64,000 bases of DNA from Candidatus Micrarchaeota archaeon. GTDB taxonomy: Archaea > Micrarchaeota > Micrarchaeia > Burarchaeales > JACRGF01. The position numbers and the translations under genes were made by a program. The notes under the pieces are model-generated. The model was not told the origin of the DNA. It saw nothing but the letters and a program-made list of their open reading frames with translations, and made no database searches. Below, piece after piece: positions 20,456 through 64,000 of the stretch. The stretch spans positions 5,315 to 69,314 of the forward strand of contig JACRGF010000062.1 of assembly GCA_016212395.1 (NCBI GenBank), in the 5' to 3' direction. Within the stretch, counting starts at the first letter, position 1; each line of letters opens with the position of its first letter.

Positions 20456-20493
20456 GTTTCGGAGTTTAGAAGTTCTGCAGTTTAGTAGTTTTG
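20456..20493. repeat. 38-nt exact inverted copy of 18690-18727
   Basis: gtttcggagtttagaagttctgcagtttagtagttttg is the exact reverse complement of ccaaaactactaaactgcagaacttctaaactccgaaac (minus one terminal base). The pair brackets the helicase gene. Confidence 0.9.
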
Positions 20494-37308: not shown

Positions 37309-37974
37309 TTAAAACCCTAATTCTTCATCAACCAAAATTACCGCCATTCTTCCCTTCACGCACTCAAACTCAGTAATCAAAACCTGCCCGCACATGCGCT
37401 TGAACTCAGGAGCACAACACTTTTCCTCGTTGCACTTTCCACTGAAGCACGGAGTATTATCCCAATTCAAGCGCTTGCAATTCAAGGGAGTAGCGACAGA
37501 ACGCAAACGCTTGAACGCATCATCCAACGAACGAACGAGCTTGTTCCTGCCCACAACAACAATAGTTTTCTTCTTCGCAAAAGCAACTCCAGCAATCCTG
37601 TTACCGAAAGCAGACGCGACAAGCAACCGGCCGTCCTCAACAACAGCATTCGCTGAAGCCAGAAAATAATCAGCATTCGCACCCTCCCTGCTCAAACGAG
37701 CGCGTTCAACAGAATTCAAGGCATTATCCCTATCAAAAACAACAAGCTTTTTTTCTCCCGCGCTCTCCCTCAACCCATCAAGCACGCCGAGCTCAACGAG
37801 AGTCTGAGAACCGCTCCACCCAACACTCGAGTTGCCTTCAATCAAGGAAAAAATTTTCGCGTTCGCTTCAGCCTTGTTCGCACAGAAAAAAAACTCTATT
37901 TGCCGCTTTTCAAAAGCACAAGAAAGCTTTTCAACATCCAAACACGCCACAAAACCACCCAAACAAAACTTCAA
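37309..37974 (-). CDS. LUD-domain (LutB/LutC, DUF162-like) protein
   Basis: GANADYFLASANAVVEDGRLLVASAFGNRIAGVAFAKKKTIVVVGRNKLVRSLDDA. Cys-rich tail CFSGKCNEEKCCAPEFKRMC. Confidence 0.5.
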   Translation of the reverse strand: MKFCLGGFVACLDVEKLSCAFEKRQIEFFFCANKAEANAKIFSLIEGNSSVGWSGSQTLVELGVLDGLRESAGEKKLVVFDRDNALNSVERARLSREGANADYFLASANAVVEDGRLLVASAFGNRIAGVAFAKKKTIVVVGRNKLVRSLDDAFKRLRSVATPLNCKRLNWDNTPCFSGKCNEEKCCAPEFKRMCGQVLITEFECVKGRMAVILVDEELGF

Positions 37975-38002
37975 AACTCCAAGACTGCGAAACCACCCAA
38001 AA

Positions 38003-42522: not shown

Positions 42523-42617
42523 TGCTTGCAAGAGGGGAATTGCATGGCGTGGGAAAAAAACAAGGAGCATAGCGAAAAGCAAGGCACTCGCGCGGAAAGG
42601 AGGAGGGGACGCGCGTG

Positions 42618-47901: not shown

Positions 47902-49095
47902 ATGAATGATTCTTACGACGTTATTGTTGTTGGCGCTGGCCCAGCAGGCAGCATCGCGGCGAAGACTGCAGCAGAGAAAGGCGCGAGCGTTCTCATGCTC
48001 GACAGGCGCAAGGAATTCGGCGCGCCGGTAAGATGCGGGGAAGGCATTGGCTTGCACTGGGTGAAAGAATTAAACTTGAAAGTCAGCCCCAAGGCAGTAA
48101 GCGCGGAAATAAGCGGCGCTGCGTTGTACGGCCCGGACTTGAAAACACGCCTCATAATACGCGACGATGAAAGCAAAGGGTTCGTGCTTGACAGGAAAGT
48201 GTTCGACAAAGACTTGGCGCATGATGCTGGGAGGGCAGGCGCTGAAATAAAAGCAAAAACAGACGTTATTGACTTGCTGAAGGAAGGCAAGAGAATAACC
48301 GGAGTGAAAGCGAAAACGCTTGAAGGCGAAACAATAGAAGTAAAATCAAACGTAGTTGTTGACGCTGAAGGAGGAGAGAGTTTGCTCGCGCGCCTCGCTG
48401 GCTTGAACGCGATAGCAACTCTCTACGACACTGACTTTGGAGTAGAATACGAAATGGTGAACGTAGAATGCGAAGACTTGATTGAAATTTATTTCTCGAA
48501 CGAATTCTCCCCGCGCGGGTACGTGTGGATTTTCCCGAAAGGAAAAGACGTTGCAAACGTTGGAGTTGGAATAGGCGGGCTTAACGCCCCGAACGCAGTC
48601 CATTACTTGAACAAGTTCCTTGCAGACGCGAGAGTGAAAGAACGATTGGGAAAAGCACAAACTGTTGCAGTGAAAGGAGGCCTCATTCCAGTAGGCGCTC
48701 CGCTCGAGAAAATGGCTGTAGACGGATTTATTGCAGTCGGGACTGCAGCGCACCAAGTAGACCCGATTCACGGCGGTGGAATTTGCCTTGCGCTCGACGC
48801 CGGAATGATTGGAGGCAGGGTGGCAGCGGAATGCGCGCTTGCTGGAAAAACAAGCGAGAGAGACTTGAGCGCTTACGAAACAGAATGGCGCGCGAAAAGA
48901 GAAAAAAAACTGTTGAAGCGCCTCAAGCTGAGAAAGACTCTTGAAAAACTGAACGACGCGGACTTGAAAGCAATATTCGAAAACCTGAACGACGCGGACG
49001 TCGCAAAACTGTTGAGCGGAGACTACGCGCCAGTAGTAAAAAAAGTGCTTGTGAAAAGGCCGCAGTTGCTGAAAGTGCTGACAGCGCTCGTGTAA
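47902..49095 (+). CDS. Geranylgeranyl reductase family (digeranylgeranylglycerophospholipid reductase-like)
   Basis: YDVIVVGAGPAGSIAAKTAAEKGASVLMLDRR...RCGEGI. FAD-binding fold, 397 aa. Confidence 0.85.
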   Translation: MNDSYDVIVVGAGPAGSIAAKTAAEKGASVLMLDRRKEFGAPVRCGEGIGLHWVKELNLKVSPKAVSAEISGAALYGPDLKTRLIIRDDESKGFVLDRKVFDKDLAHDAGRAGAEIKAKTDVIDLLKEGKRITGVKAKTLEGETIEVKSNVVVDAEGGESLLARLAGLNAIATLYDTDFGVEYEMVNVECEDLIEIYFSNEFSPRGYVWIFPKGKDVANVGVGIGGLNAPNAVHYLNKFLADARVKERLGKAQTVAVKGGLIPVGAPLEKMAVDGFIAVGTAAHQVDPIHGGGICLALDAGMIGGRVAAECALAGKTSERDLSAYETEWRAKREKKLLKRLKLRKTLEKLNDADLKAIFENLNDADVAKLLSGDYAPVVKKVLVKRPQLLKVLTALV

Positions 49096-49321
49096 CCGCA
49101 AATTCTGCCGAATGTTTTCGTTAGTAATGAACGGACTTGATTTACCTTACAACAGACTTTGATTTTGTGTGCTAAACGTTCACCTCTTGTTTTTTAGGCA
49201 TACATTTAATTTGTAAAATGTGTGGTAAGCATTAATAACTTCTGTTGAAGTTCATGATACACACGAGCGATTTTTGTGTAACCGTTACAAACAATCTTGA
49301 ATTTTTGTTTTGGCATTTGCT

Positions 49322-50206
49322 TCACATATAGTTCTTATGCTCCTTTACGTACCTTTTAAAGAACCATTGCACGAATATGGCGTCGTTTTTCTTTACTTGC
49401 GAGCGTTCGAGTGCATTGTAATAACTGCTTCTGTTTTCATAGGGAATGTTTAGAAGTGGAAAACCATGCTTATGCAAAACGAAATTCATAAGAAGCCTGT
49501 TTGTTCGCCCATTTCCATCGCCAAAAGGATGAATAGTAACAAACTTTAGGTGCACTAACGCTGCCAGTTCAACAGGGTGAATTTTCTCCTTGTTCCGATT
49601 GTACCATTTGAAGAACTCATTAAGCAAAACTGGAACTTCAACCGGGCTTGGCGGCATGAATCTACATCCAGAAATGGCTACTTGATACTCACGCATTCGG
49701 CCTGCCATATCTGGTTTCGTCCCTTCAAAGAATTTTTTATGCCAATAAAAGACTATCTGCAAGGCCAGATCTTTTTTGTAATCAAGAATTTCATAGAATA
49801 ATTTTTCATGCGCTTCTGCTTCTTTTATATCCTTAACTGGCTTGGAACGAGGCGTCAGCCCACGTTCAAGAAGATCTGCAGTTTCTCGATACGTAAGTTT
49901 TGAACCTTCAATTCTGTTAGTATCGTATGTAAATTTAACTGAAAACGAGCGAACTCGTTTTTCTAATACGCTCTCAGGGGTTTTCTTCTCTTCCTTAAAG
50001 TAGTTCTCCTTGATTGCATTTAGTGCAGGGTACCAACGTTCCTTATAAATTTCAGAAAGGAACTGAACTTTGAGCTCTTCGATTTTATTTGGAATTTTAG
50101 TGCCTAAATATTTCTCTCTAGTCGCAACCCCGCGTTCAGTACGAATAGTATGCTCCAGATAGTAATAGGTTCTTGTGCCAACCGTCTTCTTCTTTACCGT
50201 TACCAT
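49322..50206 (-). CDS. Fic-domain protein (class II, with internal inhibitory motif)
   Basis: HPFGDGNGRTNR matches HxFx(D/E)GNGRxxR. The upstream TNRIEG fits (S/T)xxxE(G/N). Confidence 0.85.
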   Translation of the reverse strand: MVTVKKKTVGTRTYYYLEHTIRTERGVATREKYLGTKIPNKIEELKVQFLSEIYKERWYPALNAIKENYFKEEKKTPESVLEKRVRSFSVKFTYDTNRIEGSKLTYRETADLLERGLTPRSKPVKDIKEAEAHEKLFYEILDYKKDLALQIVFYWHKKFFEGTKPDMAGRMREYQVAISGCRFMPPSPVEVPVLLNEFFKWYNRNKEKIHPVELAALVHLKFVTIHPFGDGNGRTNRLLMNFVLHKHGFPLLNIPYENRSSYYNALERSQVKKNDAIFVQWFFKRYVKEHKNYM

Positions 50207-50216
50207 GCTCTTTTAT

Positions 50217-50266
50217 TACCCTTACATGCTTATATATTTTTCTATTTTGTTAAAAATGTAAGGGTA
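50217..50266. promoter_or_regulatory. 11-bp inverted repeat flanking the TATA-like box of the fic promoter
   Basis: tacccttacat (50217-50227) and atgtaagggta (50256-50266) bracket gcttatatatttttctattttgttaaaa. Confidence 0.5.
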
Positions 50267-50305
50267 TAAAAGCGCGTTTCATTAAGGAAATGCACCCCAG
50301 CAAGT

Positions 50306-50887
50306 TCACCATTCTTCGTAAGTTTCGTGGTTGAACTCGTAGAGTTTTCCATGCTGTTTTCCTTCAAAAAACTTTTCTATCACTTCCTGCTTGGAGCCGC
50401 TGAGCGTGACTCCGTGGAACGGGTCGAGCAAGTGGTGGAATCCATTGAATTCGTAGAGCACGAACGCGTGCTTGTCCGCGCCTTCGCTCGCGACGATTAC
50501 TCTCGCAGAATTGTTTTCAAGCGCAACGAGCAGGGAGCACAATAAAGTTGCCTTGTCCATTTCGTCTGCTGCTTTCAACTCGAGGATTTCCTCCAGTGAA
50601 AGCCAGAATTCGACTGGGAGCGGCTCGTTTGAAATTTCGTCCCTCACGAGCTCGAACGCCTTGAGCGCTGCAGCCTCGAAATCGCGTTCTGAAATGTAAG
50701 GGTGGAACTCTGAAACGATTTGCTCCCGGAGTTTTTGGATGACTGGGTTCTTTGGCTGCACGCGTTCTTTAAGCTCTGGAACGCTTTTCGCCTCGCCTTC
50801 CTCAATCACTTGCTTGTAGCGCTCGATAATTTTCTTGTACAGTGCAGCCTTGCACTCTTCTCCTGCCACGAAAGCATTATAATTCAC
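50306..50887 (-). CDS. Transglutaminase-like (Cys-His-Asp) fold protein
   Basis: DKATLLCSLLVALENNSARVIV...KHAFVLYEFNGFHHLLDPFHG fits the C...H...D transglutaminase-core spacing. The start is uncertain: GTG at 50887 was chosen to avoid overlap with the divergent 50922 gene. Confidence 0.45.
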   Translation of the reverse strand: MNYNAFVAGEECKAALYKKIIERYKQVIEEGEAKSVPELKERVQPKNPVIQKLREQIVSEFHPYISERDFEAAALKAFELVRDEISNEPLPVEFWLSLEEILELKAADEMDKATLLCSLLVALENNSARVIVASEGADKHAFVLYEFNGFHHLLDPFHGVTLSGSKQEVIEKFFEGKQHGKLYEFNHETYEEW

Positions 50888-50921
50888 GAGTATAAAATAC
50901 TTGTTGTAGAGGCGTTTTTTC

Positions 50922-52217
50922 GTGGAATTAGAGTTTTTTGGAGGGGCAGGGGAAGTAGGCAGGAATTGCTTCATGGTCTCTGAAGGCAGAGACGACCTCA
51001 TGCTCGACTGCGGAGTAAAGCTCGGTGAAGTGGAGGAACACCCGCTCCTCTCGCCTGAAGACATTCACCGCGTTCGGCGCATAGCAATATCGCACACGCA
51101 CTTAGACCACATTGGCTTTCTCCCGTACATGCTCAAGAAAGGATGCAAAGCGCCAATTTACTGCACGAAGCCAACGCGGGACATGACGCAACTGCTCTTG
51201 TCAGACTACCAGCGCATTGGAAGAGGAAGAAAAATTACAACGAAAGACGTTGAACGAGTGATGAGCGCGTGCAATATTGTGGAGTACGGGGAGAAAGTGT
51301 GCGACGGCATGACGTTCTCGTTCCACAACGCAGGCCATATTCTCGGAAGCGCGATGGTGCTCGTTGAAGGCGAACGCAAGAAACTGCTTTACTCTGCAGA
51401 CGTGAACATGCGCGGCACGAAACTGCTTGACGCCGCGAGGACGGGGTTGGAAGCAGAAGTGCTTATTTTAGAGTGCACTTACGGAGGGAAGGAAGACAAG
51501 CTGCCTGCAGTGAAAACCGCTTCAAACGAACTCGCCGAAGCAATAAACCAAACGATAATTGAAGGCGGAAGCGTGCTCATCCCGACATTCGCAGTTGGCA
51601 GGGGGCAGGAAATTCTGCTCACGCTTGACGCATACATGCGCTCTGGCTTGCTTGAGAAAGTGCCGATTTTCATTGACGGAATGATAGTGCGCGCGAACCG
51701 CATCTACCGCCACAATATTCTAAGCGCGCGCGACGAAATACAGAAAAGCATTCTAGTAAGTGAATACGACCCGTTCAAAAGCCCGTTCTTCCACCAAAGC
51801 GAGCGCAAGGACAGGAGCGACGTGCTCGAACAACAATGCATAATCGTCTCTACGAGCGGAATGCTCACAGGCGGGCCTGTGCTCGGGTACTTGAAAGCAC
51901 TCGCAGACAACAAGCGCAACAAACTCCTTCTTGTCGGCTACCAAGCGGAAGGAACACTCGGAAGAAAACTCTTGAGCGGAGAAAAGAAAATAATAATAGA
52001 CAAAGAGGAAGTCGACGTGGAAATGAGCGTGGGGCAAGTGCCGTTCTCAGCGCACAGCGACCACCAGTCGCTCCTCCAGCTCGCCAACTCCACGAAAGAG
52101 CTGAAAAAAGTGTTCCTCGTGCACGGCGACCCGCACAAAATAGAAGACATGCGCGCGGACTTGGAAAAAAAATACGAAGTAATCGTGCCAAAAAACGGGG
52201 AAGTGCACGCGCTGTAA
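50922..52217 (+). CDS. Beta-CASP metallo-beta-lactamase RNase without KH domains (aCPSF2-like)
   Basis: [32 protein letters not shown], LVHGD. Confidence 0.85.
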   Translation: [431 protein letters not shown]

Positions 52218-52230
52218 AACACGAGAAGAG

Positions 52231-52294
52231 TGTTTACAGAATGTAAACAAAACGTTTATAAAACATAAACAGCATGTTTACAGCATGCAAACAC
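52231..52294. promoter_or_regulatory. Three operator-like inverted repeats spaced ~22 nt apart upstream of and overlapping the MNT start
   Basis: tgtttaca-gaa-tgtaaaca (52231-52249). gtttat-aaaac-ataaac (52254-52270). tgtttaca-gca-tgcaaaca (52276-52294). Confidence 0.55.
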
Positions 52295-52818
52295 TTGTAT
52301 CGAACAGGAAAAGAAAAAAATTGCTGGAATACTTGCTTGCGAATGCCGGGGAAAAAATTTTAGTCAGGCGAGTTGCAAGCAAGCTTGGGCTTAATGCAGG
52401 GTTCGTGTCTGTTTTTGTAAGCAAGCTAAAGCGCAAAGGGATTGTTAAAGGCGGAACTGTAAACTTGGGTTCTGCCCAAGCAAGACTGTGGAAAATTGTT
52501 TTCAATATCAACGCAGTGGAAAAGATTGCTGGAGAAATTATGCGCAGTAGCAGCGCTCTCGGAGTTGGAGTCTACGGGAGCTGGGTGAAAGGAACTAACA
52601 CTGAAAAAAGCGACTTGGACTTGTGGGTGAAAGTGAAAAAGCTTCCCGGCGCGCTTGAAGCTGCAAGGCTGCGGGCGCAAGTGAGAAAAAAACTCGGAGT
52701 TGAACCAAGCATATTGTTCTTGACAGGAGAGAAAATCACGCAGATGAAGAAAGACAATCCTCCAATGTATTTTTCGCTTGTGCACTCGTTCGTGTTGAGA
52801 GGTGAAGGCGTTGATTGA
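52285..52818 (+). CDS. wHTH + minimal nucleotidyltransferase (MNT) protein
   Basis: N-terminal LLEYLLANAGEKILVRRVASKLGLNAGFVSVFVSKLKRKGIV. NTase motif GVGVYGSWVKGTNTEKSDLDLWV. Confidence 0.75.
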   Translation: MQTLVSNRKRKKLLEYLLANAGEKILVRRVASKLGLNAGFVSVFVSKLKRKGIVKGGTVNLGSAQARLWKIVFNINAVEKIAGEIMRSSSALGVGVYGSWVKGTNTEKSDLDLWVKVKKLPGALEAARLRAQVRKKLGVEPSILFLTGEKITQMKKDNPPMYFSLVHSFVLRGEGVD

Positions 52819-53233
52819 TTTAAATGAATGTGTGGAAAAAGGGCTTATCAGGAAGACGGTCGCATCAAAAGAACAGGCGTTGGCTGGATTGAAGAAAGCA
52901 AGAGTGCTGTTAAAAGAGGCGGAAGAGGATTTTGAGGACGAACGGTTTAATTCAACAGTAGTCGTAGCATACTTGGCAATATTGAATGCTGCGCGGGCAG
53001 TATTGTTCAGGGATGGCTACCGCGAGAGAAGCCACGCGTGCGTCGCACGCTACCTTGAAGCAAAATACGCTGGAAAAATTTCGCAGGATTGCATAGACTT
53101 GCTGGATTACTTTAGGGAAACGAGGCATGAAGTGCAGTATGAATCAGATTATTTCGCTGAAGCAGAAGCAGCAAAGCAGATAGCAGAATTCGCGGGCAAG
53201 TTCATAAAACTAGTTGAAGAGTTGCTGAAGTGA
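52802..53233 (+). CDS. HEPN-domain protein (partner of the MNT)
   Basis: 143-aa helical protein overlapping the MNT gene by 17 nt. YRERSHACVARYL region. Confidence 0.6.
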   Translation: MKALIDLNECVEKGLIRKTVASKEQALAGLKKARVLLKEAEEDFEDERFNSTVVVAYLAILNAARAVLFRDGYRERSHACVARYLEAKYAGKISQDCIDLLDYFRETRHEVQYESDYFAEAEAAKQIAEFAGKFIKLVEELLK

Positions 53234-53377
53234 ATAATGCACGAAGAAAAAATCAAACAAAACAGAAAATATACGAAAGAAAAAAAACTGCAAACTGAAC
53301 ACGCAAAACTGAAAACTCAAAACCATCCAAAACCTCTAAACTACAAAACATCTAAACCCAAGACACTAGACTGAAGA

Positions 53378-56300
53378 TTATACAAACGGCGCGCACAATC
53401 CTGTTGTTGCAGCGCACGTTACGTAATCGCCGATGGAGCGCACGTATATTCTCGATGAAATGATGAATTCTTCATCCAGCAAGTCTAAACGGGAATAGTC
53501 GCAGTAGAACGTCTTGCATTCTCCTTTTGATTCTTCATCGTTAGTTGAGGCGCATTCAAACGTATCAGCGTGATCAGGGCCGACTGCGTGGCTGCAGTCG
53601 AGGCTCGTGTAAACTTGCATCACGTCGATGGAATCGTCTATTTCTCCTGGCTCGAAGCCTTCCAGTCTTATTTCCACTTTTATTTCCTCATTTTTCCTTC
53701 CCGAACCGACTTGCACAATGCACTTTCTTCCTGAAACTCCGGAGTTTATAATGAAACTGTCCACTGCTGGAGTTGGCGAATCGAACCCTGGAGGCGGGTC
53801 AGCAGTCGCAGTGACTATGTAATTGCCCGCGCCCCACTCGCTGATGTCCCAAGAAATTGAATACTCGCCGTCAGCGTTAGTAGTCGTAGTGTGGTCTGTC
53901 GCTCCAGGGTGCACTCCACCGTCAGGCCCGACTATTGAAACTGTAACGAGAGCGCCTTCAATCGGAATTTCAGTTCCGTCCTCGTCAACGTAGTAAACTC
54001 TCCCTTGCGTGACAGCGTCTTCCTCTGTTCCTTCAGGGTAAGAGTGAGAGGCTGGAAGCACTTCAAGCGTGATGACAGTAGCAGTTCCAACGTGAGTGCG
54101 CACCTCGACAGGCACAGGCGGGCACACTAACTCGCCTGCGCTTGCTGAAACAGTTCCGGTTCCAGCAGTTGTTGCAGTGAAAGTAGACCTCGGGCCAGCA
54201 CTCGAGAATGTTCCCAACGCACTGCTCCAAGCGAGTGACGCCGGGCAACTGACTGCAATGCCCGCATCAGTCAAGCAGAAAGCACGGTAATGAAGAGAAT
54301 CGCCGACGTAAAGCACTGCATCGCCTGGAAGAATCGCGGTGCACGCGCCTGCGACAGGCTCGCCACCAATGCTTTCCACGAGCGTTGAACACTCTAACGC
54401 TTCACCAGAGTCAAGCACTCCGCTTGCAGTAACCGTTTCCCTTCCAACCCCGCTGGGGTTGAATTCTGTTGAAGGCGCGTTCGCAGCAGGAGTTGGGTTG
54501 AATGTGAACGTTCCAGCGAGCGAACCGCTGTCCCAATCGAACTGAGGACAGTCAATATCTTCTCCGCTTGAAGAAATGCATTCTGCTGAAAGCGAAATCG
54601 CTCCATTGTCAACGTCAACTGAAGACGGCTCTGCGCGCAATAGGCACACGCTTTCGCCAGGCGCTTCAAGCAACACTGGCAGAACGCATCCAGCGAACGG
54701 CTCAGAATCCGAACGCTCGACGTTAATCAAGCCTGCAGTTCCAACGCTTCCGTCAGCAGTCATTGAACTCGAAGGGCGAGCTGGAAGCGTTGCAGCACTC
54801 GTAGTTGCAGGGTTCATTCCACTGCTCGCAATGAAGTCGCTCACGCTCCACGACAACGCGGGACAGCTTACTTCCAAATCAACAGCGTTCAAACATTCAA
54901 CTGAAAATAATCTCGTGTCGCCCAAGCGCATCATCGCAGTATCTCCCACTCCGACGAAACGGCACGACGCTGCAACACCCGCGTCCGCAACTGTTACGGG
55001 AGTGCTGCAAGTTGCGAAACTCGCGCTCGAAGCAACAACCGTTCCATCACCAGCCGTCTCGCCGGTGAACGTGCTTCCAGCAAAACTTCCAACATCAGAA
55101 GAGTAAACGAAATCAGCAGGGCACGCTACACTCGCGCCGTTCTCAATGCAACTGATGCTCGCAGTTGCAGTCCCTCCGACAAGAACGCTTGGTGGAGTGA
55201 TTGAAACACTGCACTCGCGCACTGGAACGTTGCTTGAAGTTATCGGCGCAGAGCATTCGATTGGCACTCCACCCAGAGTAACTCGCGCGCCAACCCGCCC
55301 GCTTCCGATCGCGCTTGCAGTAAAGAGAGCACGCGAATTCGTTGTTCCTGAAAGACTGCCTGCAACACCCTCGCTGAACCACGCGAGCGAAGGCGGGCAA
55401 AAGCCAGTAGCAGAACCATACCCGCACAACACGCGGTATTCAGTTGGATCGTTGAGGACTACGTTGCTCGGGCCAGTAACTTCACACACTGGCCTGTCGC
55501 GCACGTTCAAAATCGCGCTGCACGGAAAACCACTGCCAAGCCCGAAAAGCATTGCACTCATTCCAGCAGCAGTTGGAGTCAACGAAACAGACGGACTGCG
55601 CGCTGAAGGCGAAGGGTTAGGAGCAATCGTTGCTGGAATTGCTGAAGTCCAAGTTAAAGAAGGGCAGTCAACTGAACTACCTCCAGTAGTGCAAGCAGCA
55701 GTGAAAGAAATAGAATCGCCAACAAAACCATTTACACTCGACGGAGTGAGCACGCACGAGTTGACAGGAACAGGGTTAACACGCACAGCGAGAACGCCAC
55801 AAGTTATAGTCTCACTCGGAGCAGTTGTCGGAACAACTGCTTGCGCGCTTAAAGTAAACAAACCATCCCGCGGAGGAATGAACGTCACGCTCGCGCCACT
55901 AGCACCGCTAAGAGAACCAGCAGCAGCTGGGGATACTGCCCACGAGCCTGAAAGCGCATTGCACGGAACAACCGCCCCGTCAACGCGCCTGCACACTACT
56001 GAATAAAAAGTGGGAGAACGGGCAATTATTGGAGAAGGCCCTTCGACAGCACACGTGTGGCGAGAGATTGTTGCAGTGCGAGTGCACGAAAAACTTCCGC
56101 TGTTCGCAGTAACAGTTCCACTGCCTGAAGCAGTAGCGACAAACGATGAAGACGGGCTTGCTCCAGCAGCAGTGCTCGCAGGGCTCATTGCGCTCGCCAC
56201 TGTTGAAACAGTCCACGACAACGCAGGGCACGAAACTGAAGCGCCCCTGCCAGTGCAACTCGCAGCAAAAGAAACAGTGTCACCAACGTGCAACGCACCT

Positions 56301-58771
56301 GAAGTAGTTTGAGACAACGTGCAAGCATCAGGAGCAGGAACAACTGCAGAAACCGCTTCACTGCACGTCGTGGCAATTCCGCTTAATGTTACACCAGCTT
56401 GAATAGTTCCACTGCTTACAGCAGAAGCGCGGAAATCAACTTGCGGGTCATGCTGGTTCTCGAAAGCTCCTGAAAGCCCAGCGCTCTTCGTCCACGAAAC
56501 AGCACCGCAACTCGCAGTGCTTCCATCACTAAGCCTGCACGCTGCCTGGAACGTTGACAGCACTCCAACTGCCAACGAACCTGCAGGAGAATGGGAAACA
56601 ATGCATGAAGGAAGATTTTGAACAGTCGCAGCAGCAGTGCACGAAAACGGAGATGCAAGAGTCGAACAACCGTTCGTAGTCTGCGTTGCAGTAACAGTAA
56701 TTGTAGCAGGAGTTGCTGGAGCAGTAAGCGTGCTTGAAGGAGACGCAGTAGTAGAACACGCAGTGCCCATTGTTCCTCCGTTGTTCGCACTCCACTGCAA
56801 CCTGCTGCACGTGACAGCAAAACCTAGAGAGTCAGCGCAAGTCGCAGTGAACGCCTGCGTTCCGCCAACGTAAAGAGTCGGGCTCGAAGGAGAAAGTGAA
56901 CAGCTTGCTGCAGGCCCGACAGTGTGCCTCACGGTAATAACAGCAGTGCACGGGGCAGTGAACGGAACTCCAGCATTGTTTGAATTCACTGAAAGAGTTA
57001 CAGAAGCGTCAGCTGAAGGCGCAGTGTAAGTTGAAGAAGCGCTTGCGCCAGCACTTGTTGGAGTAGGAGAAATTGTTCCAGAGCCTGAAGCAAGGCTTAA
57101 AGTCCAAGCCATCGTAGGACAATTTCTCGTAACACCTGCAGAATCCATGCACGTTGCAGTGAACGGTTGCGTTGCGCCATACTCGAGAGTGGATGTTGCT
57201 GGAGAAAGCACGCAACTCGTTGCAAGTGGAACAGGCGGTGCAGTAACTGTAATTGAAGCAGTGCACGGCGAAGCGAAAGGCTGGCTCGCGTCAGTAGAAG
57301 TGACGGACAACGTCGGGCTTACAGTCGAGCTCGGCGCAGTGTAAGTTGAACTCGGGCTTGCTCCAGCACTCGTCGGAGTGGGAGACATTGTTCCACGAGT
57401 TCCAGTACCGCTCAAACTCCAAGACAACGTCGGGCAGTTGACAGAATTCCCATCAGCATCCTCGCACGACGCAGTAAACGTTTGAGTGCCAGCGTAATAG
57501 AGTGGCGCAGAAGTTGGAGTAAGCGTGCAACTCGCAGCAGGCTCTGGCGGAGGCGCAGTGACAGTGATAGTGCACAATGGAACAGCGAGAGTCTGCGTCG
57601 GGTTAGTGGCAGTGCACGGGTTCTGCACGTCGTCATCATAAGAAACGTCAGCGTAAACATCATGAGTGCCAATAGAGCCTGAAGGAGCAGAGACAGTCGC
57701 TCCAGCTGAAGTAGTGTAAGTATGCGAACCACCACCCGGAACGTCGGCAGTAGTACTGTGCGATGCAGAAAAAGACAATGCTGCAGGAGCACGCCCACCA
57801 ATCGCCACTGGAACATCACGCAAAACAATGCCCGAAACATCAGCAGGAATTTCCCCTGAATTGCTCAAGCGAATAGAGTCGGAAAAAGAAACAGTAGAAC
57901 CAGCAACTATAGTTGAAGGAGTGCAACTGTGAGTGCGCGAAGAAAGCAAAGCGCCGTCACTCGCAGTAATCGCGTTGACAGTCATTGAATTGCCGGTAAG
58001 CGTGTACGCATCAACGTCGCCAGCTGTTTTTCGAGAGTAAACCCAGTAAACGTCCATATCGTCAGTCCTGTCCAAGTACGCGCGAGTGTACAACGCGCAA
58101 TCGTCTATCCTCAAATCAGAGTGAATAGTGTGCGCTCCAGCAGTTAAAGCAGTAGAGTAGGAAGGCGAAGACAATGGCAGGGCATACGTCGCGTCTGCAG
58201 CCCCGCCATCAACGTAAACTTTCGCGCTCCCGTAACACAGCACGTCAGCCTTGAAAGTCCCGCGCTCGCTCTGCTCTCCAGCACCTATCGGGTCCCACAT
58301 GTAATAACCGTAAATATCATGTTCTGTTGCCAAACTTGAAGAAGAACGGTCGTTCGCCACTAAGTTGCTGTAATCAGAAGAAGAAATCCACGTTACGAGC
58401 GGAGCTCCGGCAGTATAAGCACGGTCAGTGTCCCTGCACCTGTCATTCGAAAAATAACATGAAACTTCGCCAGTGCGCGAGTTCCAGCCCCAGTAATTAA
58501 CAGTATTTGAAGAAAGCGGGACGACAGAAATATCTTCGCCAGCACAAACAAAATCGTTGTTGTTCTTCGAGTCCCCGTCCTGCAAAACGCGAGTGTCTAC
58601 CGCAAAACGAACGTTGTCGATAGTAGCATACAACGCATCAGTCCGCGCAGGCCTGAACGTTACAACGCTCGTATAAGACGCCTGGCCTGCAGTCGCGAAA
58701 ACAATAGAAGAAAAAAAAACAAGCAAAAAAACAAACAATGCGAACACACGCGAACCCAACACGATCACCAA
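53378..58771 (-). CDS. 1797-aa secreted surface protein with ~12 tandem Cys-paired Ig-like (Big_2-like) repeats
   Basis: Signal-like N-terminus FALFVFLLVFFSSIVFATA. Repeats of ~95 aa such as SCTLTPTSAPLYYAGTQTFTASCEDADGNSVNCPTLSWSL...SPTPTSAGASPSSTYTAPS...CTASITVTAPP. A carboxypeptidase-regulatory-like segment (VTVSIVGPDGG...NADGEYSISW) lies near the C-terminus. Confidence 0.75.
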   Translation of the reverse strand: MVIVLGSRVFALFVFLLVFFSSIVFATAGQASYTSVVTFRPARTDALYATIDNVRFAVDTRVLQDGDSKNNNDFVCAGEDISVVPLSSNTVNYWGWNSRTGEVSCYFSNDRCRDTDRAYTAGAPLVTWISSSDYSNLVANDRSSSSLATEHDIYGYYMWDPIGAGEQSERGTFKADVLCYGSAKVYVDGGAADATYALPLSSPSYSTALTAGAHTIHSDLRIDDCALYTRAYLDRTDDMDVYWVYSRKTAGDVDAYTLTGNSMTVNAITASDGALLSSRTHSCTPSTIVAGSTVSFSDSIRLSNSGEIPADVSGIVLRDVPVAIGGRAPAALSFSASHSTTADVPGGGSHTYTTSAGATVSAPSGSIGTHDVYADVSYDDDVQNPCTATNPTQTLAVPLCTITVTAPPPEPAASCTLTPTSAPLYYAGTQTFTASCEDADGNSVNCPTLSWSLSGTGTRGTMSPTPTSAGASPSSTYTAPSSTVSPTLSVTSTDASQPFASPCTASITVTAPPVPLATSCVLSPATSTLEYGATQPFTATCMDSAGVTRNCPTMAWTLSLASGSGTISPTPTSAGASASSTYTAPSADASVTLSVNSNNAGVPFTAPCTAVITVRHTVGPAASCSLSPSSPTLYVGGTQAFTATCADSLGFAVTCSRLQWSANNGGTMGTACSTTASPSSTLTAPATPATITVTATQTTNGCSTLASPFSCTAAATVQNLPSCIVSHSPAGSLAVGVLSTFQAACRLSDGSTASCGAVSWTKSAGLSGAFENQHDPQVDFRASAVSSGTIQAGVTLSGIATTCSEAVSAVVPAPDACTLSQTTSGALHVGDTVSFAASCTGRGASVSCPALSWTVSTVASAMSPASTAAGASPSSSFVATASGSGTVTANSGSFSCTRTATISRHTCAVEGPSPIIARSPTFYSVVCRRVDGAVVPCNALSGSWAVSPAAAGSLSGASGASVTFIPPRDGLFTLSAQAVVPTTAPSETITCGVLAVRVNPVPVNSCVLTPSSVNGFVGDSISFTAACTTGGSSVDCPSLTWTSAIPATIAPNPSPSARSPSVSLTPTAAGMSAMLFGLGSGFPCSAILNVRDRPVCEVTGPSNVVLNDPTEYRVLCGYGSATGFCPPSLAWFSEGVAGSLSGTTNSRALFTASAIGSGRVGARVTLGGVPIECSAPITSSNVPVRECSVSITPPSVLVGGTATASISCIENGASVACPADFVYSSDVGSFAGSTFTGETAGDGTVVASSASFATCSTPVTVADAGVAASCRFVGVGDTAMMRLGDTRLFSVECLNAVDLEVSCPALSWSVSDFIASSGMNPATTSAATLPARPSSSMTADGSVGTAGLINVERSDSEPFAGCVLPVLLEAPGESVCLLRAEPSSVDVDNGAISLSAECISSSGEDIDCPQFDWDSGSLAGTFTFNPTPAANAPSTEFNPSGVGRETVTASGVLDSGEALECSTLVESIGGEPVAGACTAILPGDAVLYVGDSLHYRAFCLTDAGIAVSCPASLAWSSALGTFSSAGPRSTFTATTAGTGTVSASAGELVCPPVPVEVRTHVGTATVITLEVLPASHSYPEGTEEDAVTQGRVYYVDEDGTEIPIEGALVTVSIVGPDGGVHPGATDHTTTTNADGEYSISWDISEWGAGNYIVTATADPPPGFDSPTPAVDSFIINSGVSGRKCIVQVGSGRKNEEIKVEIRLEGFEPGEIDDSIDVMQVYTSLDCSHAVGPDHADTFECASTNDEESKGECKTFYCDYSRLDLLDEEFIISSRIYVRSIGDYVTCAATTGLCAPFV

Positions 58772-58871
58772 AACAAATTAACTCACGAGATACTCGCGCG
58801 CACAACAACACAAACTCATCATGTGGAAAAAAAAACAACAATTCAAAACTTCTAAACTCCGAAACGCTTAT

Positions 58872-61358
58872 TCAAAACTCATAACGAACGCCTAACATGA
58901 ATGCCGCAGCGTCGTTATCCGTTCCTTCAACTCCTGCTTTAACGCGCAGGCCTTCCAAGCCTTTAATTCCAGTTTCCGAAATTAAGTTATAACTCTGCGT
59001 GCCGTTGCCAGTTACGCTTACAGTAGCACACAAATGCGGAGTTTGAAACACTAAAACATCGGTGCCAACAGCAGCGCAAACGCTTACTGCACCGTACGGG
59101 TCAACACTGCCTGGAATGCTGGCAGTTCTTGGGACTATTGTAGCCCCGCCTTCGCCAGTAACTTCAATTGAAACAGGGCCAACGGTAAAATGAAGCAAAG
59201 ACGAGCTTACACCAATTTGGTGAGCGCTAATTCCATCAACTTGCCCAGAGTAACTGACTGATGAAACCGTCCTCAGCAAGTCAACAAAAAAATCCGTTAA
59301 ATATGCGTCATGCCCTTTGACCAAGTCTTCAATAGCGCGGTTCCAGCTCGTCCTGTCCGCACGCACTACGCGAGCGCCGAACGTCCAAGTTTCTCCTGCC
59401 TTTCCAAAGCGCAAGCTGATTTGAGGCGCTTGCCTTTCGCCAGTCATCTTGTCCAAGAGAAGAGTAACCTCTCCTTCAGCACCGAGAGTTTCATCCCGCT
59501 CTAAAGTAGGGCGCGATGTTTCAGAGTCTCTACCGAACAAATCAAAATTATAATCAGTGGTAGTGCCACTGCCGCGCAAACGCGCTTCCTTCAAACGCAC
59601 GACTGCAGTAACCCCGCCGTCCAGCCAAGTCGCTCCAGCTTCTGCGTACGTTGGGAGAAACACGCGCATCTGCAACTCTTTTTTTGAAGAGTGGAAAGAA
59701 ACGCCAGCTGCATCAACAAAAGCAGTGCCTTTGTGCGAGCGGAGTATTCCAATCAAGCCGCGCTGAGCTTCAATATCATTAGGGGATACTTGAAGCCTTG
59801 CAACATAACGCTTGAAATCCCCAAGTTCTGGCTGTGTAAAACCAACTTGTGAAGATAACAAATAGCTACTCGGAATCATTGCAAGCGCGTTGGCTGCACC
59901 CTGAACAGTTCCACTCTGGTATAAACGGTTGAATGCCCGCCCCCTCGCTTCATCAAAACCTAGAGAGTTAAGAATGCTTTCATTAAGGCCACCACCAGTA
60001 ATAACTTGAGTCGTGACAACAGGCGGTACATCAAAAACAAGAGGAGGCATTGAAGCAGCCGGAGTAGGCAAGACAGGCAAGCGCTCGACAGTCAACTCGC
60101 TTCTGGCATCGAACATTTCACGCATTCTTTCAAGCAACTCCGGAACAAACGGCTTCTGCACGACTATAGAGTATAATTCGTCAAACAAACCACGGTCGCG
60201 CGCAACGCGCGCTACTTGACGCTCGTCGAAAGAGCCAAGAGCACCACGGCCAGAGTCAGTTGCACGCACACGATCATAATCTGCCTGCAATTCGTCATTC
60301 CATGCTTCGAGATTGACAAGCCATGCAGAGTATACTGACAGCGCGCGACTTGATTCAGCGGGGAATACTATTGGCACATACCATTGCATGAAATCCATTA
60401 ATCGAAGGCACAGCGAGCCGAACTCTTGCACTGCCCCTATTTCAGACAAGTGCCTGTCGAAACCATGGATTTGCTGTTCCAAAACAGCGAGTGAAGAATT
60501 CAGGTCTTGCTTTAAAACAGTTGAAGTATTTACAAGCTGCGTTGATAACGCTTTTAACTTCGCTTGATTTTCAGAAGTGAGTTTGGCAACTGCATCTTCA
60601 TCGAACGTTGACAGGATAGTTCGAGCAACGAAAAAAGAGTGAACACGCTCCATTAAAGGAGTTCCACTTGAAAGCGCGGAATCAAGCAGGGAAGAAACTA
60701 CTTTGAAAAACGCTTCACCGGAATAAAGGCCAGCTGAAGCACGCACTTCATCGAAAACTTTCTTCAAATCAGCCAGCTGCTGGGACTGCACTGGGTTCAG
60801 CATGCTGTTTTCATTAAGAAAATTAAGCAAGTAAAGATGAGCAGATGCTTCTGAAAGCCGAGCTAAATCTTCTGAAGCAAGAGTTTCACCGGCACGCGTT
60901 TTTGCAAACAACTGGTCGAGCAACGACGCGAACGCTTCGAAATGTTTTTGAGGGTCATTCGTTTTGCGCCATTCCTCTAAAGTCTTTCGCGCTTCAGCAT
61001 CAAGCACAGTAAGAGCTGGAACAAGCTTGGCAAGGCGAGTAGGTTTTTTCTTTCCACGCCTGCCTGAAGCTGCCGGAACAGCTGCTGCTTTCTCAACTCT
61101 ATAAGCGGCTCTAAAAGCAAACAATGCATCGCCTCCGTTGGAATAAGTTCTATGAATGCCAGTATTTAAATGATTTGGATTTTCACTTCCGTCAGTATCA
61201 GCACGCGCAGGCAACGCAAATGCGACAACCAACGGCGCGACTAAAGGCAAAAAAGCTAAAGAGCGAAAACTAGGGCGAAGAACATTCCAGCATTTCCTAG
61301 CAAAACCAAGCGTTGCTGTAGAAGCACGCTGGCTCTCCCCACACTTTACAGAACTCAT
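58872..61358 (-). CDS. 828-aa secreted protein: helical N-terminal half, beta-rich C-terminal third ending ...FMLGVRYEF
   Basis: Signal-like LAFLPLVAPLVVAFALPARA. The C-terminal ~300 aa show short alternating hydrophobic strands separated by G/N/D turns. Confidence 0.65.
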   Translation of the reverse strand: MSSVKCGESQRASTATLGFARKCWNVLRPSFRSLAFLPLVAPLVVAFALPARADTDGSENPNHLNTGIHRTYSNGGDALFAFRAAYRVEKAAAVPAASGRRGKKKPTRLAKLVPALTVLDAEARKTLEEWRKTNDPQKHFEAFASLLDQLFAKTRAGETLASEDLARLSEASAHLYLLNFLNENSMLNPVQSQQLADLKKVFDEVRASAGLYSGEAFFKVVSSLLDSALSSGTPLMERVHSFFVARTILSTFDEDAVAKLTSENQAKLKALSTQLVNTSTVLKQDLNSSLAVLEQQIHGFDRHLSEIGAVQEFGSLCLRLMDFMQWYVPIVFPAESSRALSVYSAWLVNLEAWNDELQADYDRVRATDSGRGALGSFDERQVARVARDRGLFDELYSIVVQKPFVPELLERMREMFDARSELTVERLPVLPTPAASMPPLVFDVPPVVTTQVITGGGLNESILNSLGFDEARGRAFNRLYQSGTVQGAANALAMIPSSYLLSSQVGFTQPELGDFKRYVARLQVSPNDIEAQRGLIGILRSHKGTAFVDAAGVSFHSSKKELQMRVFLPTYAEAGATWLDGGVTAVVRLKEARLRGSGTTTDYNFDLFGRDSETSRPTLERDETLGAEGEVTLLLDKMTGERQAPQISLRFGKAGETWTFGARVVRADRTSWNRAIEDLVKGHDAYLTDFFVDLLRTVSSVSYSGQVDGISAHQIGVSSSLLHFTVGPVSIEVTGEGGATIVPRTASIPGSVDPYGAVSVCAAVGTDVLVFQTPHLCATVSVTGNGTQSYNLISETGIKGLEGLRVKAGVEGTDNDAAAFMLGVRYEF

Positions 61359-61367
61359 AAACGCGAA

Positions 61368-63926
61368 TTAATATTTTGTTGGATCTAGCACAGTAAACTT
61401 AGCTTTGTTAAGCAACGCGAACGCTTCCCAAGAAACCGCGCGCACAAATTCAATAGGATTATCCCTGAAAGAAATCAACTCGTTTATGCCTGACGAAATT
61501 TCCACGTTACTGCCATCTTCATTGCGTTTAGGCAGTTTTCTCGAGGATGCAATTGAAGCAGTACCCATCAAATCCTTCAACTGGCCAAGCAATCCAAGCA
61601 AACGCTCGCACTCTACACAAGTCTGGAGAGTGACAGTCACAGCAGTGGCAGGATTGATTTCGTCAATCGCATCCTGAAGTTTAGAAACATAATCCAGCAA
61701 AGGCACACCAGTCGCAATGGAGATAGCAGCAGATTTGGTTCGAATCGCTGCACTAAGCGCGTTATACCTGCTTGGGAACGTGTCAACATCACGCCCAATT
61801 TGAAAAAATTGAGCACCATGCACGTTAAGAGTAACATTCCCTTGAGTCTCACCAAGCGCAGGTTTCGCTGCGTCTCCCACTTTTGCTTCAACATCGGCTT
61901 TCGCCTTCTCTTCTGCCTGCTTTGACGCTTCAGCGTCAGTTACTTTCACTTTCAAACCGTTGAGAGGAGTAGAGGATCCTTCGCCTTCGGATTTATCTCC
62001 TTTTTTCAGTGTTCTTGCTTCAAAGACTCGACGGCCTGTTTCTCCTCCTCGAATTAGCTTGCCTTGTGGTTCTCCGAAGTGCGGCACGTTGCTAGGTATG
62101 CCCGCGTCAGAAGGCACTCCAACGAGACCACCTATTTCCGTAACTAGTTCGCTTGCGTTGCCAGTGCCAAGACGGACGATCACGCCAGATATCTTTCTCC
62201 TCGTGTCGTTTACTTGTCGTTTCAAGGCGTCAACAGGAGCATTGCCAACTGTTGCTCTTCTGCTTTCTAAAATTTCGTCTGCTTTAGCTAATGCAATAAG
62301 ACCTCTGCGCAGTGCCTCGCGGTAAATACCTTGTTGTTTAGGAGTCAGTAGTGCTGCAGGCGCAACTGCTGGCGCAGGCGCTGGAGCAATTTTAGGCGGT
62401 TTTTCTTCGAGCCCAAGCGCTTTCTGCTTGAGTTTTTCAGCGTCTTCCCTTAGTTTTTTTGCTTCTGCGCGCAAGCCTTCGAGTATTTCAGTGTTGAGCT
62501 GCATGCCTGGCTCGAGGTGGCGCACGAGCCACCCGTGAAGTTCTTCAGCATCGCCAGCCAAGCGAGCGCGCTCAGCGTCAAGCGCGTCGTGTTCAGCTTT
62601 GTTAACCTTGTCGTTCTTTGCTTCAAGAATCCTGCGCACGTTTTCAAGAATCGCTTGAGTTCCAACAACGTCTGCAAGCAATGAATCAACGCTTGAAATC
62701 AACTGGCGTTCGTCTGGAGACGATTCGCGAACAGTTTCAACGAATGCCGGCCTTCGCACGCCAGTTGGAGTAAATAAAACAGTGCCTGCAGACCTTGAAT
62801 CTTCAGCAAACTTGTCGGATTCTGAAAAGCAAATCGCTAGCAATGCTACAGCAGCAGCAACGCCGATGGCAATGCCTCTTGCTGCCTTGCCTCCAATAGG
62901 CTTCCTGGCAACGCGTTCTGCAAGCTCTAACGCCCTCCTGCCAGCAGAAACAGCAGCTTCTCCGGAAACAGCACGCGCAGCTTCACGCGCTTGGCTACGG
63001 GCAGCAAACATTGCGCCAGCGCGTTCTACAGCAGCAGCAACGCGATCCCTGCCGCTTGAAACAGCTTCTCGCGCGCGAGTAAAATCAGCAGCAGTCTTTT
63101 CCGCATCGCTAATAACGAAACGACTTACAGCACGCGCACCAGTTGCAACTTTAGAGCCAGCAGCACGAGCTTGCCCTGCAGCAGCAGTGCGCGCGCTAGC
63201 CAAGAACGCTCTAAAACGAGAAGGGCTCTGCGTGACTCTCAATGCTTCCAGCTTGCTTGCAAGTTCAACTTCCCTGACAGCAACAACTTCAGCCCTGCGG
63301 GCAACAGGCGCAGCCTCTCCTGCAACAGCACGAGGAGCGGAAAAGTCTCGAACAACACCTTCAGCAGCTCGCTCAACTTCCCGGGCAACAGGCGCAGCCT
63401 CTCCTGCAACAGCACGAGGAGCGGAAAAGTCTCGGGCAATGCTTTCAGCAGCAGCACGCTCAGCGCTTTCAGCAGCTCGCGCGATCCTCTCTGAAGCGAT
63501 TGCACTCACGCCTCTTGAGGCAGACGCGCTCCGCTCGAGGTTAACGTACCTCGCAACAGCATCGTGGTATTTGCCGGAAGGAATTTTATCAAGGTCAGCA
63601 ACGCCTGTTCCAAGAAATTTTTCAAACTCTCGCTCTGCCTGCCGGCGACCCATGCCGCTGAACCTTGAAATGTCTGCTTGGAACGCATGCGTTAAGCTTT
63701 CCCTCAGCCTTTGAACAGCAGCCAAGCGCAGTTCTTCAGTAGCAGCAGTTTCCAATGCTGCAGCAGCACGCCCGACAGCTTGCTGGGCTGGGGCAGTAGC
63801 CGGCTTTGCAACTGGCTCTGCAGCTCGAATAGGCTTGGCGCGCATGCCTGCGCGGGCTTCAACTGCAGGTTCTGGAGCAGGAATGGGAGTACGCGGTTTG
63901 TGAACGGGTTTTTGTGTTGGAGCCAT
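61368..63926 (-). CDS. 852-aa single-pass membrane protein: Ala/Arg-rich N-terminal half, coiled-coil and beta-rich C-terminal half
   Basis: TM GIAIGVAAAVALLAICF at about residue 370. 28-aa tandem repeat RDFSAPRAVAGEAAPVA. Pro/Ala linker KIAPAPAPAVAPAALL. Confidence 0.65.
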   Translation of the reverse strand: MAPTQKPVHKPRTPIPAPEPAVEARAGMRAKPIRAAEPVAKPATAPAQQAVGRAAAALETAATEELRLAAVQRLRESLTHAFQADISRFSGMGRRQAEREFEKFLGTGVADLDKIPSGKYHDAVARYVNLERSASASRGVSAIASERIARAAESAERAAAESIARDFSAPRAVAGEAAPVAREVERAAEGVVRDFSAPRAVAGEAAPVARRAEVVAVREVELASKLEALRVTQSPSRFRAFLASARTAAAGQARAAGSKVATGARAVSRFVISDAEKTAADFTRAREAVSSGRDRVAAAVERAGAMFAARSQAREAARAVSGEAAVSAGRRALELAERVARKPIGGKAARGIAIGVAAAVALLAICFSESDKFAEDSRSAGTVLFTPTGVRRPAFVETVRESSPDERQLISSVDSLLADVVGTQAILENVRRILEAKNDKVNKAEHDALDAERARLAGDAEELHGWLVRHLEPGMQLNTEILEGLRAEAKKLREDAEKLKQKALGLEEKPPKIAPAPAPAVAPAALLTPKQQGIYREALRRGLIALAKADEILESRRATVGNAPVDALKRQVNDTRRKISGVIVRLGTGNASELVTEIGGLVGVPSDAGIPSNVPHFGEPQGKLIRGGETGRRVFEARTLKKGDKSEGEGSSTPLNGLKVKVTDAEASKQAEEKAKADVEAKVGDAAKPALGETQGNVTLNVHGAQFFQIGRDVDTFPSRYNALSAAIRTKSAAISIATGVPLLDYVSKLQDAIDEINPATAVTVTLQTCVECERLLGLLGQLKDLMGTASIASSRKLPKRNEDGSNVEISSGINELISFRDNPIEFVRAVSWEAFALLNKAKFTVLDPTKY
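63299..63434 (-). repeat. Two perfect 52-nt direct repeats with an 84-nt period inside the 852-aa gene
   Basis: gggcaacaggcgcagcctctcctgcaacagcacgaggagcggaaaagtctcg occurs at 63299-63350 and 63383-63434. Confidence 0.9.
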
Positions 63927-64000
63927 GAGTTATCACTCTCTTTAAACGGTCAAATACGGAAGAGTTTATTGCCGAAGTAGTATTTATATGTTTGTTGTAA

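Follow-up and report, generated by a model that had tools for sequence, protein, structure and literature searches.

We analyzed a stretch of 64,000 nucleotides (nt) from Candidatus Micrarchaeota archaeon (assembly GCA_016212395.1, contig JACRGF010000062.1, positions 5,315 to 69,314; hereafter the window, whose own numbering is used throughout), focusing on three consecutive open reading frames (ORFs) on its minus strand. These were labeled genes A, B, and C in their 5′ to 3′ order along transcription. Gene A (61368..63926) encodes an orphan protein of 852 amino acids (aa), apparently a single-pass membrane protein; gene B (58872..61358) encodes a putative secreted protein of 828 aa that is a strict orphan; and gene C (53378..58771) encodes a giant, putatively secreted near-orphan of 1797 aa. 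The A–B and B–C gaps are 9 nt and 100 nt, respectively. Re-reading of the coordinates confirmed the three consecutive minus-strand genes, their lengths, and their spacing as given in the initial annotation of this DNA, which had been made from the letters alone. ORFs of 2.5–5.4 kb are not attainable by chance at a GC content of ~48–53%, and the long plus-strand antisense ORFs inside the module (e.g., 62782–63714 and 55146–56006) are by-products of its Ala/Ser/Thr-rich coding strand. The start codon of C is ambiguous by 1–4 codons (an alternative gene caller gives 1796 aa), and a Shine–Dalgarno-like GGTGAT overlaps its codons 1–3. No paralogues of A, B, or C were found in the 64-kb window.

The NCBI record, filed under Candidatus Micrarchaeota archaeon, includes the locus tags HY992_06325 and HY992_06330. 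The archaeal genes in the window comprise those for an intein-bearing FttA/aCPSF1, HMG-CoA reductase, geranylgeranyl reductase, CysRS, and a tRNA presumably with an intron; the contig is archaeal, and the module lies in a native archaeal context. An independent Logan assembly of run SRR12113407 showed 100% identity across 14,456 nt (window positions 48872–63327), which reproduces the transition from the archaeal genes into the module.

Searches for relatives of the three proteins yielded little. In a word-index search of 5.8 billion protein clusters, A and B each matched only themselves, and C gave only three weak matches (E-values of 3e-6 to 5e-4), all bacterial-looking proteins with immunoglobulin (Ig)-like repeats that aligned to the first four of the 12 repeats of C described below. 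For B, an exhaustive phmmer search against all 1.84 billion 50%-identity representatives again returned only the query, and tblastn against PLSDB plasmids and GenBank phages found nothing. Nothing turned up when the locus was sought in GTDB genomes, JGI metagenomes, and IMG/VR. No family in Pfam, NCBIfam, PHROG, or PADLOC was matched above threshold by A, B, or C, including the S-layer families of Pfam and NCBIfam, and PDB sequence searches gave nothing for A, for B, or for the head and tail of C. A defense system or prophage identity of the module was rejected for lack of matches. The earlier statement that no described archaeal system has this layout stands, since no archaeal or bacterial system was matched by sequence in the family, PDB, and homologue searches.

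Protein C: Ig-like repeats and missing sequons

Protein C contains 65 Cys residues (3.6%) and 25.7% Ser plus Thr, and the mature protein has a net charge of −85. Signal, transmembrane (TM), and coiled-coil calls for this protein, as well as for A and B, were made with simple home-made scans (Kyte–Doolittle hydropathy, heptad score, and direct reading). By hydropathy (2.67), the N-terminal segment (aa 1–27; 58691..58771, minus strand; VFALFVFLLVFFSSIVFATA) is a predicted signal peptide or possibly an uncleaved signal anchor. Hydropathy also showed that C has no C-terminal hydrophobic anchor, so that both the signal-like N-terminus and the missing anchor are as annotated before; no archaeosortase-type sorting signal was found with NCBIfam. 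The segment is followed by a "head" (aa 28–410; 57542..58690, minus strand) that had no Pfam match at E ≤ 10 and no PDB sequence match. The proposal of a PA14-like sugar-binding region (PF07691) at aa ~150–200 was dropped on these grounds.

The head precedes 12 tandem repeats (aa 411–1558; 54098..57541, minus strand) of 81–105 aa each, with a mean pairwise identity of 27%. Each repeat carries four invariant Cys residues (C5, C26, C36, and C93) and one nearly invariant Trp. We modeled repeat 1 by AlphaFold using the 12 repeats as the alignment, obtaining an eight-stranded sandwich with a predicted local distance difference test (pLDDT) score of 96.1. A Foldseek search with this model placed intimin D00–D0 (E 5.6e-4, TMq 0.66) among the closest structures, along with domains 4–5 of the S-layer protein SbsC, InvE, InvD, and FdeC; further matches included SbsB, ZirS (rank 45), and a phi29 prohead structure. 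When the repeat profile was compared with the PDB, the only significant match was to the Big domains of Leptospira LigA (E 2.2e-4). At the family level, whole C matched no Big family (PF02368 and relatives) in Pfam at E ≤ 1, and single repeats matched only Invasin_D3 (E 0.012; 16.5 bits vs a cut-off of 33). Modeling and structural comparison confirmed the repeats as Ig domains of the bacterial Big/intimin type, which have diverged past the Pfam thresholds and carry four extra Cys residues. The dozen Ig repeats with four conserved Cys residues noticed in the initial annotation are borne out by the repeat count, the invariant residues, and the modeled fold. The four Cys residues of each repeat probably form two disulfides; judging from the strand order, all four would be clustered at one end of the domain, its N-terminal pole.

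Downstream of the repeats, a predicted beta-sandwich resembling CarboxypepD_reg, MG4, or filamin (aa ~1590–1660; 53792..54004, minus strand) is followed by a Cys-rich C-terminal domain of 137 aa with seven Cys residues (aa 1661–1797; 53381..53791, minus strand). The isolated tail matched CarboxypepD_reg in Pfam at E 2.2e-5 (25.2 bits vs a cut-off of 32.3), and the MG4 and filamin-like matches were weak. No family match was found for aa 1661–1797 in NCBIfam, Pfam, or the PDB by sequence, and a C-terminal lectin-like tip domain was not found in the tail, which gave only these weak matches. Thus, among the families previously singled out for profile searches, Big_2, PA14, and the S-layer families were not recovered, and CarboxypepD_reg was recovered weakly, below its curated cut-off. 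A stalk of tandem Ig-like domains, a criterion for fibrillar adhesins, is present in C (aa 411–1558). Elsewhere in the window, a gene for a heavy-metal P-type ATPase (HMA) and one for a fusion of HMA, DsbD-like membrane, and cupredoxin-like domains lie side by side at 8585–12358 on the minus strand; they may be relevant to copper handling or, given the 65 Cys residues of C, to extracytoplasmic thiol chemistry.

The second distinctive property of C concerns N-glycosylation sequons (N-x-S/T, where x is not Pro). Mature C (~1770 aa) contains 50 Asn residues and not a single sequon, against an expectation of 12.0 ± 3.0; zero was reached in none of 5000 composition-preserving shuffles. Its four NxS/T triplets are all NP[ST] and hence not glycosylatable, and Asn is the most depleted of the 20 possible first residues (z −4.1). 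No depletion was seen in the ectodomain of A (3 observed vs 2.0 expected), in B (4 vs 3.6), or in the 28 other ORFs of the window (49 vs 48.9). The three bacterial repeat relatives, which are similar in composition to C, contain 19, 12, and 28 sequons, with 14.8, 12.8, and 24.3 expected. The simplest reading of these counts is that C is under selection against N-glycosylation, which makes sense only if C is exported past the archaeal oligosaccharyltransferase. In cultivated Micrarchaeota, which have a single membrane, the S-layer is glycosylated and genes for N-glycosylation are expressed (10.1101/2021.04.28.441871). The avoidance of sequons supports the notion that C is a functional, extracellular, and long-term archaeal resident. 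Exclusion of glycans could possibly serve a bare binding surface, the folding of the disulfide-rich domains, or the sugar economy of a symbiont.

Proteins A and B and the sequence context

Protein A is rich in Ala (18.4%) and Arg (9.4%). Its only TM-like segment (aa 347–371; 62814..62888, minus strand; GIAIGVAAAVALLAICF) has a Kyte–Doolittle maximum of 2.22 and agrees with the single-pass protein that had been described; 346 aa precede it and 481 aa follow. The N-terminal region (aa 1–346; 62889..63926, minus strand) is Ala/Arg/Pro-rich, has a net charge of +17 and no signal peptide, and would be cytoplasmic. Tandem Repeats Finder detected an 84-nt tandem duplication in it (63298..63452; 1.8 copies, 92% identical), a recent event that repeats the RDFSAPRAVAGEAAPVAR peptide, a 28-aa Ala/Arg-rich unit. 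Beyond the TM-like segment, membrane-proximal heptad-periodic segments (aa 394–509; 62400..62747, minus strand) are followed by a Pro/Ala linker (PPKIAPAPAPAVAPA). The heptad score, a crude home-made measure, exceeded the 99th percentile of shuffles, and the start of the ectodomain resembles a membrane stalk, possibly coiled-coil-like.

Protein B begins with a Sec-type signal-like region (aa 1–53; 61200..61358, minus strand) composed of a basic n-region, an h-region (LAFLPLVAPLVVAFAL), and A-R-A before Asp-54; the hydrophobic region spans aa 29–53, and the sequence around the putative cleavage site reads ALPARA|DTDG. A single-sequence AlphaFold model had an overall pLDDT of only 40.9, and a fold search with it gave meaningless matches. 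The model nonetheless suggested a helical core (aa 130–420; pLDDT mostly 40–82, with peaks of 78–82) and a smaller helical domain (aa 460–540; pLDDT 60–77), the core with its coordinates at 60099..60971 on the minus strand. The C-terminal third (aa 542–828; 58875..59735, minus strand; ending in ...AAAFMLGVRYEF-COOH) is Gly-rich (11.5%) and looks beta-structured, with ~14–16 segments of alternating hydrophobics counted by eye. Its period-2 hydrophobic moment was 1.01, ~2.3 standard deviations above that of shuffles (0.845 ± 0.072), and in the single-sequence model its pLDDT was 18–36, with no confident structure or barrel. A beta-rich tail is therefore plausible, and of the earlier description of B, the signal-like N-terminus agrees with the hydropathy profile, and the beta-rich last third draws weak support from the moment and the Gly content. 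For the suggested role of B as a pore or connector, we found nothing beyond this beta-looking tail.

Upstream of A, a TATA-box-like ATATAAATA (63981..63989, minus strand; ~55–63 nt before the ATG) that may serve as a promoter and a Shine–Dalgarno-like GAGTGAT (~63931–63937, minus strand) can be read from the sequence. A terminator-like 3′-end signal follows B (58827..58857, minus strand), with GTTTAGAAGTTTTG 15 nt past the stop codon and then T9; likewise, the 3′-end signal after C (53280..53357, minus strand) consists of two copies of the motif GTTTAGANGTTTTG and then a T8 run. Both belong to a G/T-rich motif that repeats every 8 nt (GAGTTTTG / GTTTAGAA; core GTTTAGAAGTTTTG) and has 13 occurrences in the window, compared with an expectation of 0.16. 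Every copy is intergenic, and most lie 15–26 nt past stop codons on the coding strand. The sites (12584–12597, 18480–18741, 20464–20493, 31038–31051, 37964–37977, 53328–53357, and 58844–58857) include those after a helicase gene, where there are ~22 tandem units, a tRNA, a gene ending at 38003, B, and C. The tRNA (30876–31010, plus strand), with the motif directly downstream, is 135 nt long, scored 51.8 bits with Rfam, and was missed by ARAGORN; its length suggests that it presumably contains an intron. The G/T-rich motif had no Rfam family match. Oligo-T tracts end transcription in archaea, and the motif probably represents arrayed terminators of the archaeal oligo-U type.

These signals bear on two points. 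First, since the module carries the same intergenic motif as the housekeeping part of the contig, it is not an assembly chimera, a possibility that the identical second assembly and this native motif together rule out. Second, the terminator-like motif and T9 between B and C mean that A–B and C may be separate transcription units. Given the 9-nt gap, A and B probably form one unit, and transcription of C probably either starts separately or relies on read-through. Of the single operon that had been proposed, the coupling of A and B is retained, and the inclusion of C is doubtful.

We also examined the base composition of the module, which had been described as GC-rich. GC content is 0.53–0.55 at 54–58 kb and 62–64 kb and ~0.45–0.50 in the rest of the window; A and C have values of 0.52–0.53, in line with that description, but B (0.48) does not share them. 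It is codon positions 1 and 2 that carry the excess (0.61 at position 2 of C; 0.66 at position 1 of A), indicating that it reflects amino acid composition (Ala, Gly, Pro, Ser, and Thr). At position 3 (GC3), A, B, and C reach 0.39–0.45, below the housekeeping genes (0.52–0.63), and foreign GC-rich DNA was rejected as a source since GC3 is lower, not higher, than in those genes. Ala codons in the module are skewed to GCT over GCG and GCA. Low GC3 was also found in a Fic gene and in an orphan ORF at 27149–30154. The atypical codon usage would fit young, weakly expressed, or fast-evolving genes, and an old transfer could also account for it.

Several other features of the window deserve mention. 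The module is adjoined by an accessory neighborhood (49322–53233) encoding a Fic-domain protein, a HEPN/nucleotidyltransferase pair whose genes overlap by 17 nt, as is typical of toxin–antitoxin modules, and a stand-alone second beta-CASP/metallo-beta-lactamase protein that also matches the Anti-Pycsar Apyc1 family. The orphan ORF at 27149–30154 (minus strand; 1001 aa; GC3 0.417) has no Pfam or PHROG match; degenerate "HAGVRE/SAGVRE"-like repeats fill its C-terminal half, and it ends in a Lys-rich tail. Another ORF without a Pfam or PHROG match (42615–45143, plus strand; 842 aa) is helix-rich and charged and has genome-typical codon usage. The transcription termination factor FttA/aCPSF1 (KH, metallo-beta-lactamase, and beta-CASP domains; 33386–37087, plus strand) is split at aa ~289–847 by an intein that carries a LAGLIDADG homing endonuclease.

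Interpretation of the cluster

We favor, with middling confidence, the reading that A–C constitute a lineage-specific orphan envelope cluster of Micrarchaeota, a DPANN group, in which C would be a fibrillar-adhesin-like fiber for attachment. C would be exported through the Sec pathway and act as a fibrillar adhesin, with its 12 disulfide-braced Big/intimin-like Ig domains forming a stalk of ~45–50 nm, as estimated from an Ig domain length of ~4 nm. This stalk would part the ~380-aa head from the beta-sandwich and the Cys-rich tail. C would be kept free of N-glycans because it passes the archaeal oligosaccharyltransferase and presumably needs a bare protein surface. A would be a type-II-oriented single-pass protein with a coiled-coil-like membrane-proximal ectodomain, and B a secreted helical-plus-beta protein. 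Retention of C could be achieved by an uncleaved N-terminal signal anchor or, through presumed contacts, non-covalently by A and/or B. Such a fiber would most likely help the small episymbiont to hold on to a host cell or to a surface. An apparatus of anchor, connector or pore, and adhesin had been suggested in the initial annotation; the adhesin-like Ig stalk of C and the membrane-stalk-like A carry over into our reading, and the pore or connector B does not. As a whole, an anchor–connector–fiber apparatus is compatible with the data as a proposal drawn from the layout.

DPANN archaea in cultivation live as ectosymbionts, and it has been proposed that their host contact is mediated by large proteins with adhesion domains (PMC6642349). 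The adhesin reading of C fits DPANN episymbiosis and the precedent of one such group, the SPEARE proteins (PMC6642349).

Several points weigh against the adhesin reading. The cluster is known from one population only, and without relatives, neither conservation nor gene co-occurrence can back a function. A terminator-like signal separates B from C, which makes a functional link less secure. No binding domain was recognized in the head or tail of C by Pfam and PDB sequence searches, and C has no anchor motif. Signal peptides, topology, and coiled coils were called by our simple scans only. Finally, the codon usage of A, B, and C is unlike that of the housekeeping genes; the three could be weakly expressed, young, or of foreign origin.

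The strongest alternative, which we regard as possible although rather unlikely, is that A, B, and C are unrelated, fast-evolving orphan envelope genes in a variable island whose adjacency and common strand are coincidental. Consistent with this, the absence of relatives means that there is no conserved synteny, the terminator-like motif and T9 separate C from B, and the module adjoins accessory genes (the HEPN/nucleotidyltransferase pair and Fic); moreover, the large orphan ORF at 27149–30154 has the same low GC3. Conversely, the 9-nt gap suggests coupling of at least A and B, all three products are predicted envelope proteins, and one atypical codon usage is common to all three genes.

An S-layer of the Sulfolobales SlaA/SlaB type, with A as the membrane stalk and C (perhaps with B) as an anchorless lattice canopy, is improbable in our judgment. 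The likeness lies in the gene layout, with a large, anchorless, beta-rich secreted protein encoded next to a TM protein whose ectodomain looks coiled-coil-like, and in the need for non-covalent anchoring that the module would share with SlaA/SlaB. Domains of SbsC and SbsB were also among the Foldseek matches, and a second stalk-type protein has been raised as a possible anchor for the Micrarchaeota S-layer (10.1101/2021.04.28.441871). However, sulfur amino acids are typically scarce in S-layer proteins and glycosylation is heavy (10.1101/2021.04.28.441871), whereas C has its 65 Cys residues and no sequons. Homologues of the Micrarchaeum S-layer protein occur throughout the phylum (10.1101/2021.04.28.441871), but none were found for A, B, or C. 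There is no sequence similarity to SlaA/SlaB and no S-layer family match; unlike in that system, the TM segment of A lies in the middle of the protein, behind a 346-aa putative cytoplasmic region, and a third protein, B, is encoded in between. In addition, the codon usage is not that of a very highly expressed gene, and 12 beads on a string suggest a fiber rather than a lattice.

Slightly less probable still is a bacterial-type pair, in which the ~290 C-terminal aa of B would form an outer-membrane barrel that exports or anchors the Big-repeat protein C. Such a pair would be a split inverse autotransporter or a ZirT/ZirS-like system, acquired by transfer, operating in a second membrane, or inserted into the host membrane. 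The consensus of the outer-membrane beta-signal is GxxΩxΩ with a terminal Phe, and the C-terminus of B, FMLGVRYEF-COOH, fits this bacterial signal (GxxYxF-like). This motif was spotted post hoc in one sequence, with a chance of ~5e-4 from the composition of B. The alternating-hydrophobic segments and Gly content of the B tail are also in keeping with a barrel, and the C repeats are structurally closest to intimin, InvE, InvD, and FdeC. As in Salmonella ZirT/ZirS, the gene for a putatively beta-rich protein precedes that for an Ig-domain protein, and ZirS itself appeared at Foldseek rank 45. Nevertheless, B matched no Pfam beta-barrel or inverse-autotransporter family at E ≤ 10, the 12-stranded IAT_beta barrel of inverse autotransporters (type Ve secretion) being absent from both B and C at this threshold, and unlike ZirT, B has no detectable likeness to inverse-autotransporter barrels. 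AlphaFold showed no barrel in B, and no bacterial homologue of B was found among the 1.84 billion representatives. To our knowledge, archaea lack BamA. Long archaeal residence is also suggested by the way C avoids sequons and by the native motifs between the genes. Although two membranes were once proposed for Micrarchaeota, a cultivated Micrarchaeon has a single membrane and an S-layer (10.1101/2021.04.28.441871), and no outer membrane is expected. If true, this arrangement would imply an outer membrane in this lineage or a barrel that serves as a docking pore in the host membrane.

We consider it just as improbable that a virus, plasmid, or other mobile element brought the module in as cargo, such as integrated receptor-binding or tail-fiber-like proteins. 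The atypical codon usage, the adjoining toxin–antitoxin and Fic genes, and the frequency of Ig-like domains on phage surfaces (with a phi29 prohead structure among the Foldseek matches) are in favor of this reading. Against it, there was no PHROG match and no IMG/VR relative, and tblastn against GenBank phages and PLSDB plasmids, run for B alone, gave no match. The stretches examined showed neither integrase nor capsid genes, and the native terminator motif flanks the module.

Relation to known surface proteins and significance

With C read as a candidate attachment fiber, its nearest counterparts are the Big-stalk adhesins of bacteria (intimin, invasin/InvD/InvE, FdeC, and Leptospira LigA/LigB). 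Like these proteins, C has a predicted signal peptide followed by many Big-type Ig domains in tandem, and its non-repeat end domains are parted by the stalk; its closest structures also come from this group. Unlike them, C is encoded by an archaeal host, has no beta-barrel, LysM, or C-type lectin domain in the chain, carries four invariant Cys residues per domain and zero sequons, and matches no Pfam Big family at threshold; its head and tail are without family assignment.

Among archaeal proteins, the SPEARE proteins of Nanohaloarchaeota (PMC6642349) and the adhesin-like proteins of gut methanogens (PMC11532034) resemble C in being large, mostly extracytoplasmic, and rich in adhesion domains; they occur in archaea that depend on a host or live in communities, and a role in cell contact has been proposed for them. 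SPEARE proteins, however, contain a TM anchor of their own as well as protease, laminin-G, and restriction-endonuclease domains (PMC6642349), all of which C lacks. C has no sequence relationship to either group.

Surface proteins with giant Ig-repeat arrays are already known; what is new here is the combination of a four-Cys Big-like domain, the absence of sequons, an archaeal host, and two strictly orphan neighbors. As a single-population observation, the cluster is a lead more than a discovery. The orphan genes A and B show fast turnover of symbiont envelope genes. If the avoidance of sequons in C is adaptive, sequon counts would offer a simple sequence marker for "naked" archaeal surface proteins. 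The molecular basis of DPANN host attachment is largely unknown, and C provides a concrete candidate for a fiber involved in it.

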